Below, piece after piece: positions 274-10,545 of a DNA stretch of 64,000 nt (position 1 is its first letter; every line of letters begins with the position of its first letter). The stretch covers positions 7,222 to 71,221 of the forward strand of contig JBCCHD010000018.1 in assembly GCA_039028935.1 (NCBI GenBank), in the 5' to 3' direction. This DNA is from Pseudomonadota bacterium (lineage in GTDB: Bacteria > Pseudomonadota > Gammaproteobacteria > Steroidobacterales > SZUA-146). The translations under genes and the position numbers were made by a program. The notes beneath the pieces were generated by a model that worked only from the letters and a program-made list of their open reading frames with translations, searched no databases and had not been told where the DNA came from.

Positions 274-1500
274 ATGACATATATGGATACTGTCATTTAT
301 TTTGCAGAGGAAAATTACCGAAAGCGCTCCACTGTCTTCGGAATCAAGGAAAATGATTTGCTTTCACACACGTATGTTGTTGGAAAGACTGGAACAGGTA
401 AGACAAATCTACTAGAGAGCCTACTAATTGGTCATATAAATAACGGCAACGGTTGCTGCCTCATTGATCCCCACGGAGACCTGGCTGAAAAGGTTAATCG
501 GTCAATAAAAGCATCGGACAACGTCGTCTACGTCAATCCATCAGATACAGATAGCCCATGGGGCTACAATCCACTCAAACGTACGCCGCCCCACTACATT
601 CCGCTCGTAGCATCCGGAATCATTGATGTTTTTAAGAAATCGTTTGACAACAAGAGTTGGGGAGCACGACTTGAACACATTCTCAGGAACAGCGTACTCA
701 CACTGCTCGAATCTGGTGGAGCGAAGCTTTCAGATATTCCAAGACTCTTAAACGATCGAGACTATCGACAGTCCATTCTCAAACGAGTAAGAAATCAGGA
801 TTTACTCGATTTCTGGCGTTTTGAGTACGACAAATACAGCTTCGTACAACGTCAGATTGCCATTGCACCGATCCTAAACAAACTCGGGGGCTACATCACA
901 AACCCTAGTGTACGTCGTGTTGTGATTGACCCGGCCAAAGAGCTCTCCTTTAGTGAGATCATGGACTCCCGGAAAATACTCATCATCAATCTCTCTCGCG
1001 GACTCATTGGTTCAGAAGCCGCCCACCTTCTCGGCTCGCTGTTTCTGACATCTATTAGCCTGGCCGCATACTTTAGAGCAAGACTCTCAGAGGACAGACG
1101 AATACCCTTTTTCATTCATGTCGATGAATTCCAGAACTTTACAACCGATTCAGTCGCCGACATGCTCTCTGAGTTACGAAAGTATAAGCTCGGACTGGTA
1201 TTAGCACATCAGTATATCGGCCAACTCACTCCAACCATTCGCGATTCGATAATAGGAAACGTTGGAACAATCATTGCATTTAGAATCGGAACTATCGACG
1301 CCAAGTTCCTATCAACTGAGTTTCATCCCAGATTTTGCGTCAACGACCTAATCAGTCTTCCAAACTATCGCATCTATCTGAAACTAATGATTGACGGTGT
1401 ACCGAGCAAACCATTCAGTGCAACGACCATCAAAGCATCTAAGCTAATTGCCGATACGCGCCCCAACCCCTTTGTGGTAGCGTCTCGGGAAGAGTCGTAA
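274..1500 (+). CDS. Soluble P-loop ATPase of the T4CP/TraD/HerA (TraG-D_C-like) type
   Basis: ORF 109..1500; the likely start is ATG 274 (MTYMDTV...) because the upstream 55 codons are Cys/Pro-rich junk. Walker A is VVGKTGTGKTNLL, followed by CCLIDPHGDL; Walker B is FFIHVDEFQNF; LVLAHQYIGQL is typical of coupling-protein C-terminal ATPase domains. There is no hydrophobic N-terminal segment. Confidence 0.7.
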   Translation: MTYMDTVIYFAEENYRKRSTVFGIKENDLLSHTYVVGKTGTGKTNLLESLLIGHINNGNGCCLIDPHGDLAEKVNRSIKASDNVVYVNPSDTDSPWGYNPLKRTPPHYIPLVASGIIDVFKKSFDNKSWGARLEHILRNSVLTLLESGGAKLSDIPRLLNDRDYRQSILKRVRNQDLLDFWRFEYDKYSFVQRQIAIAPILNKLGGYITNPSVRRVVIDPAKELSFSEIMDSRKILIINLSRGLIGSEAAHLLGSLFLTSISLAAYFRARLSEDRRIPFFIHVDEFQNFTTDSVADMLSELRKYKLGLVLAHQYIGQLTPTIRDSIIGNVGTIIAFRIGTIDAKFLSTEFHPRFCVNDLISLPNYRIYLKLMIDGVPSKPFSATTIKASKLIADTRPNPFVVASREES

Positions 1501-1590
1501 CAGAGAAGCATTTCATAAGAATCTGATTACACTCTCTAGCTAGCATTAAAGCTGGAAAAATAAATAAGAATTCCGCCAAGGAGACACGCC

Positions 1591-1959
1591 ATGAAATTAC
1601 TGCTGACCAGAGAGCAAGCGTCTAAGGGCCTCGTTTCAAAAAAAATCGAATTCAAACTCACAGCCCGAGCATCGCTCTCAGACGATGAGAAGTCGAAAAT
1701 TGATCGATACAAGATGGGGGATCTACTTCTCTACACAAACCTCGAAGATCGCGGCTCAGGAGCCTTAGGAGCCATTTCTAGGGCGATGAGCGGGGTTGAA
1801 CTTCGCGTCAACGACCTCGTCCATGGAAAATCCGTTACTTGCAAGGACATTCTCGAGATGATGGGGATCGAGAACCAAATACGAGGAGCCTGCGAACAGT
1901 TCAAGTTAATGCTCGATGCTGCGTCAGGGTTTGAAGGCGAAACCGTCATCGAATACTAG
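1591..1959 (+). CDS. Hypothetical protein (122 aa), no family recognised
   Basis: ATG is preceded by AAGGAGA (1579-1585). The stop TAG 1957-1959 overlaps the GTG start of the next gene. The sequence has no transmembrane segment or known motif. Confidence 0.55.
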   Translation: MKLLLTREQASKGLVSKKIEFKLTARASLSDDEKSKIDRYKMGDLLLYTNLEDRGSGALGAISRAMSGVELRVNDLVHGKSVTCKDILEMMGIENQIRGACEQFKLMLDAASGFEGETVIEY

Positions 1960-4721
1960 TGTCGTTCTGGACTGATCTTCTCGACGGCTATCGGTTTGGC
2001 CAGCGAGTAGTTGCACTACTTAGTCGCGTCTTTAAGTCCACTGCCTCGCTGTTTACGTCCAACCAACGAGAAAAGAAATTCGACTTTGCGGGCGAGACCC
2101 AGAAACTACACGAACTGTATGATGAGACCAAGCTCGCGTTTGAGAATTCATCGTTAGGACGGGTACAGCCACACCTGCTTGCAGTCGAGATCGTCTCTTC
2201 TGTCGCCGATGAAACGGGAGTCCCCGTAACGGAGGGATTTCTCAGCCCATTCTACGACGTAATATCAGAAGCCCTCAGATCCGAGGGCTTTTGGTTTCTG
2301 CCTGAACGCGAAGAATTCCTCTCTGACGACCCCGTATCACGAGCTGAGGCTCGCATTGACCTACGAAAAAGGAAGAACCTATACGAGAATTCTGACGAAA
2401 AACTAGAGTACCTTGTCGGACTCTTGCGGAAGGCACTGATAGGTTTAATCTCTGGTGTTCAATCAGATCTACTCAGTAATGGATACGATGAGGATCTTTC
2501 AATTGATATTACTGACCTCTACAAAGATCTTGGGACTCACCTAGAATATTTCATTCTCAATTTTTTCGACGACGAACTCTCCTCCGTTGGTGTATTCCAG
2601 CAATACATGAACGCCTTCCATGAGAATATCGCTAGAGCTTCGGGCATAGTCGACCACCAACCCAGAACACATACTAATGAATTTGTGTTTCCCTCCGACA
2701 GTCCATTCGTCGGCGAGCAACTGATAGATACTTATTTAAGAGGAACCGCCTTCCAACAGCTGTTTGAGGCACAACTCCCGGTACAGATTCCCAAGAGAGT
2801 TCGCAATGAACACACATGGATTGTTGCTGGTTCAGGTCACGGTAAAACGCAACTGCTCCAACAACTCATCTGTAAGGACATAGATAGCGGTACGGGTTTC
2901 ATGGTGATCGACAGCCAAGGCGACCTTATTCGAAACATCCTGACGCTTGCCGAATTTGGTCCTGACCACGAACGTAGTCTTGCTGAAAAGCTAATACTCG
3001 TTGATCCAAACGATATTGACTATCCAGTGGCACTCAACCTGTTTTCACTAAATAACTACGATGAATCAAACCTTACTGCCCATCAAAAAGAAACAGTATT
3101 CAACGCTACGGTTGAGATGTACTCATTCTTGTTTGGTTCGATCTTTGGAGCTGAGTTAACCGCGAGGCAGGACATCATATTCGTCTACATAGCAACGCTC
3201 ATGATGGAAATCCCAGACGCGAACATTTCGACGTTTATGAAGCTGTTACAAGACGGAAAAGAATTCTCCAAATACATGGAGCGGTTACCTGGAGCCGCCG
3301 GTGATTTCTTTAGAACTCAATACTTCTCTAGTCAATTCTCTTCAACCAAGAAACAAGTCCTTACGAGACTCTGGGCCATACGATCAAACACGACGCTTGA
3401 ACGCTTGTTCTCCGCCACCGAGAACAAAGTGGACCTCTTCGAGGCGATTACACAAGGGAAAATCGTTCTGATCAATACAGCGAAATCGCTGCTGAGAGAA
3501 GAAGGCTCAGCTATTCTAGGCAGGTTCTTTATCGCCCTTCTCTCTCAAGCTACTCTGTTGCGAGCAACACAGAATCCGTCAGATAGAGACCTATTCAATG
3601 TCTATATCGATGAGGTACAGGAATATGCCGATGATTCTTTGGAGGCGCTGACAACTCAAGCCAGAAAGTACAACGTTGGAGTAACGGTTGCTCATCAGTT
3701 CCTCTCTCAAATTCCTGATCGTATTCGCTCATCGCTCGCCACCAATACGTCCACAAAACTGATTGGATCACTATCGAATAGGGACAGTCGTGCGCTTGCT
3801 GATGAGTTACAGTGTAAGCCAGAGAAGATTCAAGTCCTCAATAAAACACGATCTCATTCAGAATTCTTGTTGCATGTTAGGCACCTAACAGACAGTGGAG
3901 TTCGAGTGAGCATACCTTTTGGCGTTTTAGAGTCTCGCACCACTATCTCACCAAGCAGGCTCGAAGAAACACTAGACATCAATCGAGCAAAAATCGCCAG
4001 AATCGCCAAGATTGAGCCGTCCATCGATCAATCTACTGATATCGCTGGAAGCCCCACACCAAATGAGAGCGAACTAAAACTTAACCCTCCGACAGCATTG
4101 TCAAACCTGCCAGCGGATCGTATTGTTGAGAGATCTGAAGAGACGCCCTCAACGAACATAGAGCCCCCTGAGACACGACCATATATCGAGAAAACTAAGA
4201 GCGGAAAAGGCGGCCCGCAACATAAGCATATTCAGGGCATTGTTCGCAAAATAGGTCAAGCACATGGCTTCCAGGCCGAAATTGAGCATCCGCTCCCAGA
4301 TGGCAAATCCGTCGACGTAGTACTAGACAATGAAACGCATAGAATCGCTATCGAGACTTCTGTCACGACAAGCGCGTCTCATGAAATTGGAAACATAATC
4401 AAATGCGTTAACGCTGGATTCGACAAGGTTGTCGTGATTTGCAAGAACGGAGCACAAAAAAGAAACCTGGCCTCCCTGATCAATGACGCGGACGAACTTA
4501 GAGAGGCGGGAAATATAGTGCCGCTATTGGCCTACCAATTCGAAACCTACATCTCCGGGCTCGTTCCCAATTCTCAAATTGATGCTGAGAGAATTGCTGG
4601 GTATAAAACACGAGTCAACTACGTATCAATATCAAACGAGGACGCAGAGCGCAAGAAAGTGGCTATCGCCAAGGCCCTTTTAGGGTTTAACGCGGCAAGT
4701 CACGTCAACACAGATAGTTAG
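1959..4721 (+). CDS. 920-aa multidomain protein: helical N-terminal region, T4CP/HerA-like ATPase paralogous to ORF 274..1500, low-complexity linker, C-terminal restriction-endonuclease-like (PD-(D/E)xK-type) domain
   Basis: Walker A WIVAGSGHGKTQLL, then FMVIDSQGDL; Walker B NVYIDEVQEY; VTVAHQFLSQI. These align motif by motif with ORF 274..1500. The Pro/Ser/Glu-rich linker covers about aa 680-745. The C-terminus reads GGPQHKHIQGIVRKIGQAHGFQAEIEHPLPDGKSVDVVLDNETHRIAIETSV...NIIKCV, a helix/strand pattern with conserved E, D and E residues. The GTG start overlaps the upstream stop. Confidence 0.7.
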   Translation: MSFWTDLLDGYRFGQRVVALLSRVFKSTASLFTSNQREKKFDFAGETQKLHELYDETKLAFENSSLGRVQPHLLAVEIVSSVADETGVPVTEGFLSPFYDVISEALRSEGFWFLPEREEFLSDDPVSRAEARIDLRKRKNLYENSDEKLEYLVGLLRKALIGLISGVQSDLLSNGYDEDLSIDITDLYKDLGTHLEYFILNFFDDELSSVGVFQQYMNAFHENIARASGIVDHQPRTHTNEFVFPSDSPFVGEQLIDTYLRGTAFQQLFEAQLPVQIPKRVRNEHTWIVAGSGHGKTQLLQQLICKDIDSGTGFMVIDSQGDLIRNILTLAEFGPDHERSLAEKLILVDPNDIDYPVALNLFSLNNYDESNLTAHQKETVFNATVEMYSFLFGSIFGAELTARQDIIFVYIATLMMEIPDANISTFMKLLQDGKEFSKYMERLPGAAGDFFRTQYFSSQFSSTKKQVLTRLWAIRSNTTLERLFSATENKVDLFEAITQGKIVLINTAKSLLREEGSAILGRFFIALLSQATLLRATQNPSDRDLFNVYIDEVQEYADDSLEALTTQARKYNVGVTVAHQFLSQIPDRIRSSLATNTSTKLIGSLSNRDSRALADELQCKPEKIQVLNKTRSHSEFLLHVRHLTDSGVRVSIPFGVLESRTTISPSRLEETLDINRAKIARIAKIEPSIDQSTDIAGSPTPNESELKLNPPTALSNLPADRIVERSEETPSTNIEPPETRPYIEKTKSGKGGPQHKHIQGIVRKIGQAHGFQAEIEHPLPDGKSVDVVLDNETHRIAIETSVTTSASHEIGNIIKCVNAGFDKVVVICKNGAQKRNLASLINDADELREAGNIVPLLAYQFETYISGLVPNSQIDAERIAGYKTRVNYVSISNEDAERKKVAIAKALLGFNAASHVNTDS

Positions 4722-4733
4722 AGGATATAGCTT

Positions 4734-5333
4734 ATGAGTGATCTGTCATTAACTGAGTTCGTGGACATTGCGACTGTAACCACGGACAGAAAGGTCGCAA
4801 AGATACGAAACGCAAAGAACAAGGAACCGTATAATCCGGCGTTTGATTTCTACAAAAGACTCCGTGATGGCATAGTTTCAGCGCACAAATCTAGCGATAA
4901 TAAAAGGGCGTTGAATAAAATTCTCACTAACCAGACCGACAAGAAAAAGATCACAAATTACCCGAATGTTATCGCAGGTTACAAGAAATTCTGGGGTTCC
5001 AAAAAGATCTCATGGATTGAACCTCCAAAAGAGCAAATGGTTTCCCACAATATTAGTGTATCCGTGAACCCTGAAATTGGAATCTCGTTCAATAATAAAA
5101 ATTACATCGTGAAGCTGTACTTCAAGAGGGAGAAACTTGCCAAAGCACGAGTAAACATGATCCTGCAATTAATGGAGGAAACTCTTAGGTCCTCGGTACC
5201 AGATGACTATGTTTTCTCAGTGCTCGATATTCGACGAGCCAAGCTGATCGAACCCACCGTTGAAATCAAAGATGCATCAATAGTGCTCGACGCAGAAATG
5301 TCCTTGATTGCTAGTGTTTGGGATAAAGTCTAG
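4734..5333 (+). CDS. Hypothetical protein (199 aa), Lys-rich, no family recognised
   Basis: ATG lies 13 nt after the stop of the 920-aa gene and is preceded by GAGGA (4722-4726). It is on the same strand and has the same AT-rich codon usage as its neighbours. Confidence 0.55.
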   Translation: MSDLSLTEFVDIATVTTDRKVAKIRNAKNKEPYNPAFDFYKRLRDGIVSAHKSSDNKRALNKILTNQTDKKKITNYPNVIAGYKKFWGSKKISWIEPPKEQMVSHNISVSVNPEIGISFNNKNYIVKLYFKREKLAKARVNMILQLMEETLRSSVPDDYVFSVLDIRRAKLIEPTVEIKDASIVLDAEMSLIASVWDKV

Positions 5334-5602: not shown

Positions 5603-6388
5603 ATGGACATTCAGAAAATAGTAACCACGATACCAGCGCTAGCGGCTGAGTATTTCCACGATTTTGTCGCCATTTTGACGCGACCCGACACTCGATTTGC
5701 ACCTGTACCCGTCGCAGATTCAGATGAGGAATTGATTGTAGTAAGCAACACTTCTGAGATGACCCTAAAAAGCGATCCAAAGCTTTTTCTATTTGCTACC
5801 TTAAGCCTTTGTTTCAGTATCTCTATCTCTTCTGCTAGTCCATTTTATAATCTGGACGAAGCACCGACTTTGATAGTCAATGTAATCGTTGGGCTCGTTG
5901 CATGGCTTATTTACGGATCGTTTATTCATTTGTTTTCCAAGGTGCTCCACGGGAGAGGCACGTACCCCGAAACGATTTCTGTATGTGTACAGTTATTTGC
6001 TGCGATAAGTGTATTAGGCAGCATATTCGCATTGCTTCTTTCATCCGAACTAATCGGGGATTGGTTGTATGAATCTTTTACTTGGTATCCAATTCAATTG
6101 ACTGTTAATCCATTCTTAAGCTTCTTTTTGTTTCAGGCAATCGCGCTGGCAGTATACCTACCTATATCATTGAAACGGATTCACCGGTTTGGTGCACTTA
6201 AAGTAACGGCAGTAGCAATTCCGTCAATTGCGCTAGTGATAGGGCTCGCCTATGTTTTCTATTCGGGCTTCGGAGTGCATCCTACGATGGCTTCAGCGAC
6301 AGCTATTCGCCAATCTCAGTCAGCTTCAGCCCCCGAGCAAAGGAGGAAGTCAATATCCGCTTCGAGAAGCAGTTTCGACCACATATGA
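5603..6388 (+). CDS. Polytopic inner-membrane protein (possibly Yip1-like), island cargo
   Basis: A soluble N-terminus of ~70 aa is followed by about five hydrophobic segments (LFLFATLSLCF..., VIVGLVAWLIYGSFIHLF, LFAAISVLGSIFALLL, FLFQAIALAVYLPI, VAIPSIALVIGLAYVFY). The Yip1 assignment is by architecture only. Confidence 0.5.
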   Translation: MDIQKIVTTIPALAAEYFHDFVAILTRPDTRFAPVPVADSDEELIVVSNTSEMTLKSDPKLFLFATLSLCFSISISSASPFYNLDEAPTLIVNVIVGLVAWLIYGSFIHLFSKVLHGRGTYPETISVCVQLFAAISVLGSIFALLLSSELIGDWLYESFTWYPIQLTVNPFLSFFLFQAIALAVYLPISLKRIHRFGALKVTAVAIPSIALVIGLAYVFYSGFGVHPTMASATAIRQSQSASAPEQRRKSISASRSSFDHI

Positions 6389-6425: not shown

Positions 6426-7475
6426 CTACTGAGGCTCATTCACCACCTCTCTGCCAGGACAATATATCGATCGCTCGAAGAATTCTCCGCCTCCATTAAA
6501 TCGGTGAATCTCTAGACAACGATTCACGATGCTCCCATCATCGAATTCATACATTAGATCCGTGTTATGGCAACGTAAGCGGCCTGGATTCAGTACGTAC
6601 TCTTGTCCATCTACGCAATCGCCGACAGGTGCGTAGATCTCTATATCACCAACAGTTCTATCATCTGCGAGGCGTAGATACACCCACTGTGTGACGTAAG
6701 GCGAACGAGTCCCGTCTTCACTTGATGCATGTTCTGCTACCAAGAAATATCTGACAGCTCGCTGAGTGAGAACAATTGCACACTGCTCAGGATCAATCCT
6801 GTTTATCCCAGACCCATAGGTTGACTCGCCCAGACAATCACCTTGGGAGCCGTCGTTGATAATGACGCCATAACTTAGATCGGGATGCACAGCTATAGGG
6901 TCACCTTCAGCGTTTGCTGTGAAGTAGCCATCACATGGCATGGGATCATCAATGCCATTAATCCAACACCTGCTAGCAAACCGGTAGTGGTCACCAGCCT
7001 CAGAGGCAATCTGATCCATTAGGTCTTCAGCTGAGCCTGTGCGATCTGAATAGCCAAGCACTGACTTCAATGTATGAACATTGAGGCTAAACTCCGGAAC
7101 GTTTTCGATGAGTATTGAAACAACTGTGGAATCAATCGCTCCACGGGCATCAGTCACCGTTAGAGTGCAGGTAACACTGGTATCGCTCTCTACCTCAGGA
7201 GCTATAAAAGACGATATGGAGGTAGTTTGGCCGTCTAGCATCACGGAACTGTTATTACAGGTCCAGGAATATGCGATGGAGTCTCCATCAGGATCATTAG
7301 ACCCAGTCCCATCCAAGGAAACAACCGCTCCCTCTTGAGCCGTGTCAATCGCTACAACCTGTGCGTTCGGGGCTGAGTTGGCAGGTGGCGGAGGCGTTGA
7401 GCCTCCTCCTCCACCACAAGAGGAGATAAAAAAGACCAATGTCAGAATCAGTAAATACTGGGCAAATCGAGTCAT
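6426..7475 (-). CDS. Lipoprotein with PKD-like domain
   Basis: Signal peptide with lipobox LVFFISSC followed by GGGGGS. The segment AQEGAVVSLDGTGSNDPDGDSIAYSWTC matches the PKD-domain signature. The C-terminal half is Cys-rich. Confidence 0.7.
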   Translation of the reverse strand: MTRFAQYLLILTLVFFISSCGGGGGSTPPPPANSAPNAQVVAIDTAQEGAVVSLDGTGSNDPDGDSIAYSWTCNNSSVMLDGQTTSISSFIAPEVESDTSVTCTLTVTDARGAIDSTVVSILIENVPEFSLNVHTLKSVLGYSDRTGSAEDLMDQIASEAGDHYRFASRCWINGIDDPMPCDGYFTANAEGDPIAVHPDLSYGVIINDGSQGDCLGESTYGSGINRIDPEQCAIVLTQRAVRYFLVAEHASSEDGTRSPYVTQWVYLRLADDRTVGDIEIYAPVGDCVDGQEYVLNPGRLRCHNTDLMYEFDDGSIVNRCLEIHRFNGGGEFFERSIYCPGREVVNEPQ

Positions 7476-7633
7476 GGAAGCCTTCCGAGTGAGATCCTGC
7501 CCGAATCGGACAGATATGCTAACTATTTTTGATTAGTATAGCGATATCGGCGCTGTTGGTCTATTATTGCTATCTATATAATAATTTTGTTAGTAATACT
7601 GATCCTTTGAATAATATTAGTTTAGCTATACTT

Positions 7634-8023
7634 ATGGACATGAAAACCATAGGTAAACGCATTCAAAAGGCTCGCAAAGACAAGGAATTGCGACAGGCTG
7701 ACGTCGCCAATCACCTTTCAGTCTCCAAAGGCGCAGTGAGTCAGTGGGAACTTGATATGAACGAGCCTTCAACCGCCAATCTTGGCCTACTGGCCGTCTA
7801 CTTAGACGTATCGTTTGAGTGGCTCGCGACAGGTCGAGGGATTCAAAACATTAACGACCACATCATCAAGCTACAGGATGATTTCAAGCATCAAGGAAGG
7901 TCGCTGTTTCTTGATGAAGCGCAATTTGTATTTCTCAAAAACTATTTGGAGCTACCAGAAGATCTCCAAGAGAGCATCTCCCACATAACGAAAAAATTTG
8001 TTTCAAAGGATGCAGAAGATTAA
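7634..8023 (+). CDS. XRE-family helix-turn-helix transcriptional regulator
   Basis: From ATG 7634: MDMKTIGKRIQKARKDKELRQADVANHLSVSKGAVSQWELDMNEPSTANLGLLAVYLDVSFEWLATG, a canonical Cro/CI HTH. The 35 upstream codons in the track (from 7529) lie in AT-rich promoter-like DNA. Confidence 0.75.
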   Translation: MDMKTIGKRIQKARKDKELRQADVANHLSVSKGAVSQWELDMNEPSTANLGLLAVYLDVSFEWLATGRGIQNINDHIIKLQDDFKHQGRSLFLDEAQFVFLKNYLELPEDLQESISHITKKFVSKDAED

Positions 8024-8041: not shown

Positions 8042-9661
8042 ATGACTAAGAAAAATGTTGGGATATGGATTCGTGTCTCAACGCAAGATCAAGCGGAAGG
8101 CGATTCCCCAGAGCACCACCTCAAGCGCGCTAAACTCTATGCAGAAGCCCAGGAATGGAGCGTGCACACGGTGTACGATCTCGCCGGATTCAGCGGCAAG
8201 TCTGTTATGGATCATCCTGAGACCAAGAGAATGCTCAAGGATGTCAGAGAGGGTAAGATCGAAGCTCTCATATTCTCAAAACTCGCCAGATTCGGAAGAA
8301 ACACGAAAGAACTACTCGAGTTTGCAGATATTTTCAGAAAGCATGATGCAGCGCTTGTTTCATTGCACGAAGCTATTGATACCTCAACTGCCGTTGGCAA
8401 ACTCTTCTACACCATCATTGGTGCGCTCGCTGAATGGGAGCGGGAAGAAATTGCCAGCCGAGTTGCTGCTTCGATCCCGATTCGAGCAAAAGAAGGAAAG
8501 TCACTCGGAGGACAAGCTCCATATGGTTACCGATGGGTGGATAAGAAGCTGGAGCTTGACCCTGACGAAGCCCCAATCCGACGCCTGATGTTCGAGCTAT
8601 TTGTCGAACTGAAACGAAAGAAAACTGTTGCAAGAGAACTTACGAAGCGCGGCATACGTACACGAAGAAACAGACCATTCTCAGACACTTCTGTTGGCAG
8701 ACTCCTCAAAGACACAATTGTCGTCGGAGACAGAATCGTCAATCACACGAAATCCACCGGCGATGGAAAGCACTGGGAGAAAAAATCGGAAGAGGACTGG
8801 GTCGTAGTAAGCGTTCCTCCAATCGTCACAAAGCAGCTTTTTGATGAGGTCCAGCAGATTTTCGAGAGTCAGAAGAGGAAGCCCGTCCCTAAAAAAGCAA
8901 AACACCTCTTTGCAGGAATTGTGCGGTGCGAGTGCGGAAAGAACATGTACGTCTTCTCCAACTCTCCAAAGTACATCTGCAAACCCTGCAAGCGACGTAT
9001 AGCTGTTGCCGATTTAGAGAAAATCTACTTCCATCGACTGAAAAAATTCCTGCTCACACCAGCCGATCTCAAACAGTATTTGGTCCAGGCCGACGAGGAA
9101 ATCGAAAAGCGAACCCGAGAGCTCAAAGCCCTCAAGACGCAATCGGGAAAGCTCAAGAAGCAGATTGACAAAATCTATGACCTCTACATCGATGACAAGA
9201 TTTCAAAGGACGGATTTACGCTAAAGTACAAGCCGCTGGAGGAGCAGTATCTTTCGATCCTCGATCGCATACCCATTCTAGAGTCAGAAATTGACCAGAT
9301 ACGGGTCACGTATAACTCAACCGATTATTTCGCAGAAGAGACGAAGAATCTCTTCTCCTCATGGGAAACGTTCGAAGAAGAGAGAAAGAGACAAGTTATT
9401 GAATTACTGACTGATTCAATAATTGTTCATAAGGACGAAGTGGAGATAAATCTCCACTTCGTCCCTAACATCATGAACACGGAGAAAATGGCAACGAACG
9501 ATCAAGGATTCATCGCCGCGATCAGCTGGAAATGGCAGGGAAAGCGAACACGACCGGCAGAACGAGCGATCAACACTTCTCGATCTTCGAGCGGTTGTCG
9601 CAACACCTCAAGCGAGCGTCTCGAAAACTCCGGCAGCTCATCCAAGAACAACACGCCGTGA
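8042..9661 (+). CDS. Large serine recombinase (island integrase)
   Basis: N-terminal resolvase catalytic domain ([11 protein letters not shown] with the catalytic Ser, ...[28 protein letters not shown]). Recombinase domain. Zinc ribbon [24 protein letters not shown]. Coiled-coil segment ([27 protein letters not shown]). The last ~52 codons (from ~9505) lie in GC-rich comM-antisense DNA. Confidence 0.85.
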
Positions 9662-10545
9662 TGCGCCAGGGATATTTCGCCGGGCATCGGTACGCGTCCT
9701 CCACCGACCAAGGCAATCGCGGAGAGCGTGTGGTGCGGGGCACGAAAAGACGGCAAGCACCAGCGCGACGGCGTCCGTTTCACGCCCGCCACATCGTGCA
9801 ACATCGCGCTTTCTAAAAACTGCGCACGTTCAAGATCAGGAAGAATGGTGGGCAGTCGACGGGCGAGCATGCTTTTGCCGCTGCCTGGCGGTCCGACCAT
9901 GAGCGCATGGTGTCCACCCGCTGCCGCAATCTCGAGCGCCCGGCAGGCGCGCGGTTGACCGCGCACGTCCGAGAAATCCAGTTTCTCATCTTGCGTTGCC
10001 TCGGACTCCTCACCCGACGACCTCAAGAGACTGTGAGTGCCTTGCAGGAACGCCGCCACCTCGACGAGCGTGTGTGCGCCCAGCAAGTGCCTGTTACCCG
10101 CACCGACGGTGGCCGGCAAACTCGACACCGGCATAATGACTTCAACCTTCGCTTCGAGCGTGGCGATCGCGATGGACAACGCGCCTCGCATGTGTCGTAG
10201 CTCACCGTTTAACGACAGTTCACCATAGAGCTCAAAACCCGCCATCTCCACATCCCGTAGCTGGCGCGACGCCAAGAGAATGCCAACCGCAATCGACAAG
10301 TCGAAATTACCCCCGGCTTTGGGCACATTCGCCGGAGCCAGGTTCACGGTGATACGGCGAGCGGGAAAATCGAAGCCTGAGTTAATCAACGCCGACCGCA
10401 CTCGATCTTTGCTCTCTCGCACTGCCGCTTCGGGTACACCCACCATGTAAAAGCCAGGTAGTCCGCCCGAGATGTGCACTTCCACCTGCACGCGCGGCGC
10501 TTCGATGCCCACACGAGCGCGGCAGTTAACGGTGGCAAACGACAC
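9502..10545 (-). pseudogene. comM: comM/yifB (Mg-chelatase-like ATPase), 3'-truncated by island insertion
   Basis: [53 protein letters not shown]... plus Walker [11 protein letters not shown] and [11 protein letters not shown]. The frame ends at FQLIAAMNP, whereas full-length ComM proteins run ~500 aa and continue after AAMNP into a Cys-rich motif. The missing ~150 codons are not downstream. Confidence 0.85.

Follow-up and report, generated by a model that had tools for sequence, protein, structure and literature searches.

The stretch of contig JBCCHD010000018.1 analysed here (GenBank assembly GCA_039028935.1, positions 7,222 to 71,221 of the forward strand; 64,000 nucleotides (nt), hereafter the window) opens with a tightly packed group of genes, two of which encode related P-loop ATPases. 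A first-pass annotation made from the letters alone had described the group as a four-gene candidate defence or DNA-processing system, and the question raised by this locus is whether its genes protect the host or serve the mobile element on which they lie. The genes are called here A (408 aa), B (122 aa) and C (920 aa), followed by a 199-aa gene. Our analysis suggests, with a probability that we put at roughly 0.45, that A, B and C, together with the RadC gene that precedes them, are the core DNA-processing or mobilisation module of a family of serine-recombinase islands that target comM, similar to an integrative mobilizable element (IME) with its own coupling proteins. Machinery of the island itself, for DNA handling or transfer, is more likely than a stand-alone phage-defence system. 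The island family is apparently undescribed in the literature, and a literature search found no paper describing the module or a matching named system.

Gene content and conservation of the module

All four open reading frames (ORFs) are on the forward strand, and their reported positions and tight packing were confirmed, the first protein being 408 aa long. Gene A occupies bases 274 to 1500 and is separated by 90 nt from B (bases 1591 to 1959), whose start is preceded by GGAGA. The TAG stop codon of B and the GTG start codon of C overlap in the sequence TAGTG at 1957-1961, and C (bases 1959 to 4721 in the ORF listing) ends with its stop codon at 4719-4721. The 199-aa gene (bases 4734 to 5333) is translationally close to C, with a GAGGA at 4721-4725 placed 8 nt before its ATG at 4734. 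The start of the window cuts the RadC (JAB/MPN) gene, and the left end of the island falls outside. The 3' end of RadC is found at bases 3 to 155 of the forward strand, where a RadC C-terminus can be read in frame 3, so the gene lies directly upstream of A. The orthologous neighbour family in related loci (f6) matches Pfam RadC with an E value of 9.8e-45, and the earlier description of an island module adjoining RadC is supported.

Conservation was assessed in 83 related loci, of which 80 are non-duplicate and 78 are non-duplicate with a called C gene. B is found immediately 5' of C in 81 of the 83 loci, the remaining two being cut at the locus edge. In 53 of the 78 loci an orthologue of A (E < 1e-80) lies no more than 10 kb from C. 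It forms a contiguous A-B-C in 25 of them and is upstream with inserted genes in 16; in 7 it is downstream, and in the remaining 5 it is encoded on the opposite strand. RadC adjoins A in 11 of 78. No homologue of the 199-aa gene occurs in the 83 loci. The gene following C differs from locus to locus, and the 199-aa gene is one of many alternatives at this position, a variable cargo gene outside the conserved module. Co-occurrence of all four genes, by which the first-pass annotation had itself proposed to judge its system, therefore fails, and the counts across the fetched loci define the unit as A-B-C, often with RadC in front.

The three remaining genes also diversify together: the pairwise similarity of C correlates with that of A (rho 0.69) and with that of B (rho 0.50). 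Of the partners whose conservation beside homologues of the 920-aa protein the first pass had proposed to test, A and B are kept but the 199-aa protein is not. From these sequence comparisons, A, B and C appear to form one functional unit, co-occurring and co-diversifying across phyla. More than 660 homologues of C, about 900 aa in length, were found with E values down to 1e-192, and relatives are present in 463 of 185,579 species genomes from the Pseudomonadota, Desulfobacterota, Acidobacteriota, Planctomycetota, Gemmatimonadota and bins of candidate phyla. Phages and viral contigs contain only partial relatives, all of which lack the C-terminal tail of C, and this near absence of the family from phages favours a role in mobilisation. 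A DNA search with a homologue from an enterobacterial bin gave no match in E. coli genomes or plasmids.

Besides Proteobacteria, the island turns up in bins attributed to Saccharibacteria, Paceibacterota and Patescibacteria (loci L010, L014, L015, L047, L063 and L067), reflecting either very broad transfer or binning contamination.

Domain structure of A, B and C

A and C are paralogous, with 27% identity over 392 residues (BLASTP E 1e-33), and carry the Walker A and Walker B motifs quoted in the first pass. Both match the Pfam family TrwB_AAD_bind (PF10412; A 38.6 bits, C 21.4 bits, cutoff 20.5), and there is a weak TraG-D_C signal besides. Protein A, which consists of the ATPase core only, has TrwB as its match among PDB sequences and contains GKTGTGKT as Walker A and HVDE as Walker B. 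In NCBIfam, TraD, CedD and VirD4-like families were matched far below their cutoffs, the best being SXT_TraD (43.6 vs 366), and neither A nor C reached a curated cutoff for the TraD, VirD4 or TrbC families. The maximum 19-residue Kyte-Doolittle score is 0.88 in the first 80 residues of C and 1.49 anywhere in A, and from these low values neither protein has an N-terminal anchor. A hydrophobic N-terminal helix is present in three of 33 C homologues (scores 2.2-2.6). A and C are anchorless ATPases of the TrwB/VirD4 family, and Pfam, structure matches and hydropathy agree with the original description of them as paralogous, soluble members of the TrwB/HerA superfamily. Both genes (274-1497 and 1959-4718) also match PHROG 5156, a phage family of unknown function with a profile length of 824 (1.4e-46 and 6e-31).

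The structure of C was modelled with AlphaFold2 (AF2) from an alignment with 33 homologues, giving a predicted local distance difference test score (pLDDT) of 80, and conservation was read from the same alignment. Residues 1-270 (bases 1959 to 2768) are predicted to form an all-helical domain of unknown function with no Pfam match; its pLDDT is mostly 80-92 from residue 41 and 41-62 over residues 1-40. Residues 271-680 (bases 2769 to 3998) form a TrwB-like ATPase with an all-alpha insertion. In a Foldseek search with the model, TrwB (1e9s) was the best match (E 4e-11), followed by HerA, DotL, DndH-C, TdpA and VirB4, with HerA-NurA also among the matches. The residues of this domain that are invariant in the 33 homologues include G291xGHGKTQ and D551-E552. 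Residues 685-750 (bases 4011 to 4208) are a disordered Pro/Glu-rich linker (pLDDT 31-36) which is variable in length and poorly conserved.

The linker is followed by a domain of restriction-endonuclease-like, or PD-(D/E)xK, topology with a C-terminal extension (residues 753-920, bases 4215 to 4721). The domain proper (residues 753-870) has the order alpha-beta-beta-beta-alpha-beta, with a pLDDT mostly of 81-93 up to about residue 870 and of 36-64 thereafter. H755, E776, D786, E799, S801, E809, N812 and K815 are invariant among the 33 homologues, and the pattern E776/D786/E799xS/K815 fits a PD-(D/E)xK nuclease in which the lysine would have moved to the following helix. Of 25 Pfam families weakly matched by the tail, six are restriction-endonuclease families (E 0.004-0.1), including AHJR-like, pPIWI_RE_REase and CoiA_nuc, which are the best three (0.004-0.006), and Mrr_cat and MTES_1575. 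A search of PDB sequences with the tail-domain profile matched only a de novo designed protein. Topology, motifs and the weak family matches taken together give moderate confidence that the tail of C has a nuclease fold, and the nuclease-like effector domain that the first-pass annotation placed on the large subunit is upheld on that evidence.

A search with the tail only, covering 1.84 billion representative proteins, gave 1,276 matches in which the tail is always C-terminal. Twenty full-length matches were inspected. Three are short proteins, possibly fragments, with little beyond the tail, and one, P0250 (530 aa), has an excisionase/MerR-type helix-turn-helix (HTH) domain followed by two copies of the tail; the others are coupling-protein-like ATPases that differ in architecture and include one with an N-terminal transmembrane helix. 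P0250 would link the tail domain to DNA-binding functions of mobile elements. The occurrence of the tail on coupling-protein-like ATPases across several lineages, with the HTH protein as the exception among the 20, supports a function in mobilisation.

B belongs to a family of 670 homologues, all about 126 aa long. Its AF2 model is confident (pLDDT 82) and has no fold match in the PDB (best E 0.75) or in the BFVD library of viral structures (best E 0.27), and nothing significant was found when the family profile was compared with PDB sequences. A similarity to the phi29 single-stranded DNA-binding protein, seen with six members only at a best E of 0.017, was rejected as noise. Neither small protein had been recognised in the first pass, and indeed no match to B or to the 199-aa protein was found in Pfam, PADLOC, NCBIfam or PHROGs; PDB sequences likewise gave nothing for the latter. 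The family represented by B, conserved and with more than 600 members, is thus without a match in the structure libraries that were searched.

The missing anchors, and the lack of a linked secretion system or relaxase among the neighbours sampled, are what would be expected if A, B and C were decaying, functionless remnants of a conjugative element. This is very improbable, as the reading frames are intact, 33 diverse homologues share invariant catalytic motifs, the three genes co-diversify, and hundreds of full-length homologues exist across phyla.

The main alternative is that A-B-C defends against phages or plasmids as a system of its own, in which a ring of C, possibly with A, would track along foreign DNA that the tail would cut, with B as a sensor or inhibitor, much as in DndFGH, TdpAB and the HerA-nuclease systems. 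We regard this as somewhat unlikely. The hexameric-translocase fold of the ATPases is common to DndH-C, TdpA and HerA, both A and C are soluble, and acidic residues of the nuclease kind are conserved in the tail. The best PADLOC matches are to mad8 (6e-13 and 5e-12) and DndH (1e-6), with HerA also matched. All of these matches are however confined to the generic ATPase core, and the partner genes of the systems concerned are absent. MADS, whose model combines Mad6, Mad7 and Mad8 with a methyltransferase (10.1101/2023.03.30.534895), was ruled out, as only mad8 was matched, by the cores of A and C, and no other mad gene occurs among the four proteins. SIR2-HerA, DUF4297-HerA and DndFGH were ruled out as well; the matches to HerA and DndH are both partial and weak, and neither B nor the 199-aa protein gave a match. 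The earlier failure to assign the genes to a named system is therefore confirmed by PADLOC, in which none fits. Should A-B-C nonetheless prove to act in defence, it would represent a new type of translocase-nuclease system.

Plasmid relatives and the comM islands

The nearest plasmid relatives of the ATPase suggest a different comparison. In three of the four closest, a Replic_Relax gene comes immediately next. On the Sulfitobacter plasmid NZ_CP081110 (L084:11129-14514), a 119-aa gene and a 699-aa C-like ATPase without the tail are followed by a separate Replic_Relax gene (Pfam 1.8e-16); on S. fredii pSfHH103a2 the gene for a soluble 437-aa ATPase overlaps the following 'replication-relaxation' gene; and on an Embleya plasmid the ATPase relative is likewise followed by a 'replication-relaxation' gene. 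Replic_Relax is a member of the PD-(D/E)xK superfamily (PMC3424549) and corresponds to the MOBC relaxase superfamily (PMC5357655, PMC12857230). MOBC relaxases, for example those of pAD1 (TraX) and CloDF13 (MobC), resemble restriction endonucleases, and no covalent intermediate has been detected for them (PMC12857230). The tail of C therefore occupies the place that a MOBC-type gene takes beside the plasmid ATPases. The Sulfitobacter, S. fredii and Embleya plasmids were typed as non-mobilizable by MOB-suite.

Pairs of coupling-type ATPase and MOBC relaxase are known from CloDF13 (MobB/MobC), pAD1 (TraX) and class 8 of the streptococcal IMEs. In the latter, a serine integrase is found together with a MOBC relaxase and a coupling protein of VirD4 type, and the integrase disrupts its target gene (PMC5357655), as the island recombinase does in comM; a coupling protein is encoded by 85 of 144 streptococcal IMEs (PMC5357655). 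Like these modules, A-B-C places a putative DNA-processing function of restriction-endonuclease-like fold after a coupling-type ATPase. It differs from them in that a disordered linker joins this domain and the ATPase in a single protein, and in that it also comprises another ATPase, A, and the conserved small protein B, which is without detectable fold relatives. The tail of C is also much shorter than the MOBC relaxases, lacks their winged-helix N-domain and has no detectable similarity to PF13814. The type IV coupling proteins themselves (TrwB of R388, TraD, VirD4) share with A and C the Walker motifs and the nucleotide-binding domain with its all-alpha insertion, whereas A and C are anchorless, stand side by side as paralogues and score below the NCBIfam cutoffs, and C adds a 270-residue helical N-domain and the restriction-endonuclease-fold tail. 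By analogy, then, the module would resemble a coupling protein and MOBC relaxase pair, yet by anchor, curated cutoffs and PF13814 it falls outside both families.

The element carrying A-B-C was placed by its right end. A large serine recombinase, which we take as the island integrase, is encoded at bases 8042 to 9661 of the forward strand (Pfam Resolvase and Recombinase; best NCBIfam match CcrB, below cutoff), and an N-terminal fragment of the host gene comM/yifB (Mg-chelatase-like; Pfam ChlI and Mg_chelatase) lies at bases 9502 to 10545 of the reverse strand. The fragment matches positions 1-158 of the 207 in the Mg_chelatase profile, and the GC content rises at this point, from 0.46 in the first 9.6 kb of the window to 0.58 in the rest. 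As the recombinase gene runs at its 3' end for 160 nt into the truncated comM fragment on the opposite strand, the island is inserted in comM, and the attachment site is probably within the overlap. At the other island end, as seen in related loci, an HTH gene lies beside a C-terminal comM fragment. The element therefore shows a hallmark of IMEs, namely an integrase of its own and site-specific insertion into a recognisable disrupted target.

The relationship between module and island was examined by sampling on the recombinase only, which gave 80 metagenome loci with recombinases 47-53% identical to that of the window. A comM fragment abuts the recombinase in 30 of the 52 loci with enough downstream sequence, the same junction as in the window, and the island character proposed in the first pass is supported. 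Among the recombinase-sampled loci, 25 non-duplicates extend for 8 kb or more into the island, and 14 of these have an A orthologue, a C-type protein or both. Conversely, the recombinases of 12 loci bearing A-B-C are 43-51% identical to that of the window, and over the 66 pairs of these loci the similarity of C tracks that of the orthologous recombinases with a rho of 0.70. Shared host ancestry may add to this correlation, yet bins of different phyla group together. A test with all serine recombinases (rho -0.08) was set aside, because the cluster used there mixes paralogous recombinases. The module thus appears to be a frequent, co-inherited component of the island family, while the genes around it turn over, and in this it is unlike typical defence cargo. 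Of the earlier alternatives, 'defence or DNA-processing', the second consequently fits better, and the first is weakened by the presence of the module in 14 of 25 islands, by the correlation with the recombinase and by the MOBC-type pairing.

The C-type proteins of the recombinase sample often belong to a second lineage, C', of about 1,030 aa, usually encoded directly upstream of the recombinase. The core of C' is 26% identical to that of C and more similar to A, its tail is the same as that of C (hhalign E 2.5e-47), and its upstream partner, of 170-240 aa, is unrelated to B. Examples are found at L103:6770-9868, L108:6797-9886 and L134:6587-9763, among others.

The neighbours of A-B-C in the 80 non-duplicate loci fall into recurrent and non-recurrent groups. 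Serine recombinases (31) and HTH regulators (20) recur, as do RadC, DUF3768, ArdC, ParB-like proteins, a short tyrosine recombinase and the families f7 and f10. RadC, ArdC, DUF3768 and ParB-like proteins are typical neighbours in conjugatively transferred DNA, and were counted in favour of mobilisation. The non-recurrent neighbours are rich in defence genes, comprising type I and type II restriction-modification, OLD with UvrD, AbiL, AriA, PDC candidates, KAP NTPases and assorted nucleases. Type I restriction-modification and OLD + UvrD pairs stand immediately beside A-B-C, so these islands carry known defence systems. This setting, shared with the HerA/TrwB-type defence ATPases of DndFGH, TdpAB, SIR2-HerA, DUF4297-HerA and Mad8, which are also associated with nuclease-type domains, can be read in favour of defence, as can the patchy spread of the family across phyla. 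Closeness to defence genes is however expected of any gene on such an island. It is the variable surrounding genes that carry the defence functions, whereas A-B-C recurs and co-diversifies within one island family and behaves as a backbone of the element rather than as sporadic cargo, and the related plasmid ATPases are paired with MOBC-type relaxase genes. Complete type I restriction-modification operons and OLD-nuclease + UvrD-like (Gabija-like) pairs lie beside A-B-C at L001:2272-8296, L002:5728-8327, L050 and L074.

The families f7 and f10 bear on another explanation, that the module maintains or establishes the excised or incoming island through replication-coupled processing, resolution or segregation, or HerA-NurA-like end processing. 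f7 is a P-loop protein of about 450 aa for which no database match was found, and f10, of about 175 aa, has a weakly RuvC-like profile (E 0.01). The position of this conserved P-loop protein and weakly RuvC-like protein between two serine recombinases agrees with a maintenance function, as do the operon-like arrangement of RadC-A-B-C, the presence of HerA-NurA among the fold matches and the lack of membrane anchors. We consider it improbable nonetheless, since the module yielded neither a replication initiator nor a partition protein, the assignments of f7 and f10 are weak or absent, and the link to MOBC-type genes points to transfer. In loci L120, L123, L147, L159 and L161 (about 3.5-11.5 kb), two divergent large serine recombinases flank f7 and f10, a layout that recalls ccrAB cassettes.

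The staphylococcal cassette chromosome (SCC) cassettes, in which Ccr large serine recombinases accompany conserved replication genes, are a further point of comparison. They resemble the islands in their site-specific integration within a gene, in having two recombinases that flank core genes, as in the related islands, and in that CcrB and CcrC are the best NCBIfam matches of the window recombinase. They differ in that this recombinase scores 158 against a Ccr cutoff of 900, the target is comM and not rlmH, and the other core genes and the host phyla are not the same.

A possible route of transfer

If RadC-A-B-C is the mobilisation module of the island, its action might begin with excision of the island as a circle by the serine recombinase. 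The tail of C, held on its long flexible linker, would then bind island DNA and nick or cut it, as MOBC (Replic_Relax) relaxases do, and the TrwB-like ring of C would pump or present the DNA, for example to the conjugative pore of a helper element. A could be a partner ring or form a mixed ring with C, and B may be an adaptor or regulator. It is possible to go further and propose that the C-type proteins are a new kind of DNA-transfer initiator, a soluble coupling-protein motor fused to a minimal restriction-endonuclease-fold nickase and helped by A and B, which would in effect be a new MOB class found across phyla in the serine-recombinase islands that target comM. We consider this stronger proposal unlikely, more so than defence, though less so than a maintenance function. 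If it were true, islands seemingly without a relaxase would gain their own route of horizontal transfer.

Several results weigh against a mobilisation role. Canonical coupling proteins need a transmembrane anchor for docking on the secretion system, and neither A nor C of the window carries one. In 78 loci, the families recurring within 10 kb include no relaxase and no secretion system; these neighbours were sampled by Pfam, so that rare cases could escape. This absence also sets A-B-C apart from the type IV coupling proteins. Nor was an oriT found nearby, although no search aimed at one was made. In the window, the statement of the first-pass annotation that no relaxase, VirB4 or pilus gene is present holds for the ORFs scanned, which extend to about 15 kb, the remainder being higher-GC host DNA. 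The tail gave no match to PF13814 (Replic_Relax) in Pfam up to an E value of 10 with 22 members searched, and an hhalign comparison with one plasmid Replic_Relax protein gave an E value of 0.72. Eleven of the 25 recombinase-sampled islands have neither A nor C within 10 kb, A often stands apart from B-C or in the reverse orientation, and the family is very rare on plasmids, with two relatives in 72,556 records. Mobilisation offers no explanation for the second ATPase or for B, and ATPases of the same fold, DndH, TdpA and HerA, drive defence systems.

No means of passing from cell to cell is known for most genomic islands. A widespread island family with two coupling-protein-like motors, one of them fused to a nuclease fold, and with no recognisable relaxase within 10 kb is thus a testable candidate for self-mobilisation. 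Whether A-B-C acts in mobilisation or in defence, the islands are vehicles for many defence genes.

The rest of the island in the window, between the 199-aa gene and the recombinase, contains three genes. Two are cargo genes whose products have no homologues in the related loci, one encoding a Yip1-domain membrane protein (bases 5603 to 6388, forward strand; Pfam) and the other a PKD-domain lipoprotein-like protein (bases 6426 to 7475, reverse strand; Pfam). The third, at bases 7529 to 8023 of the forward strand, encodes an XRE/CI-type HTH regulator (Pfam HTH_3, 2.6e-10) with NCBIfam matches to the DicA and RstR repressors.

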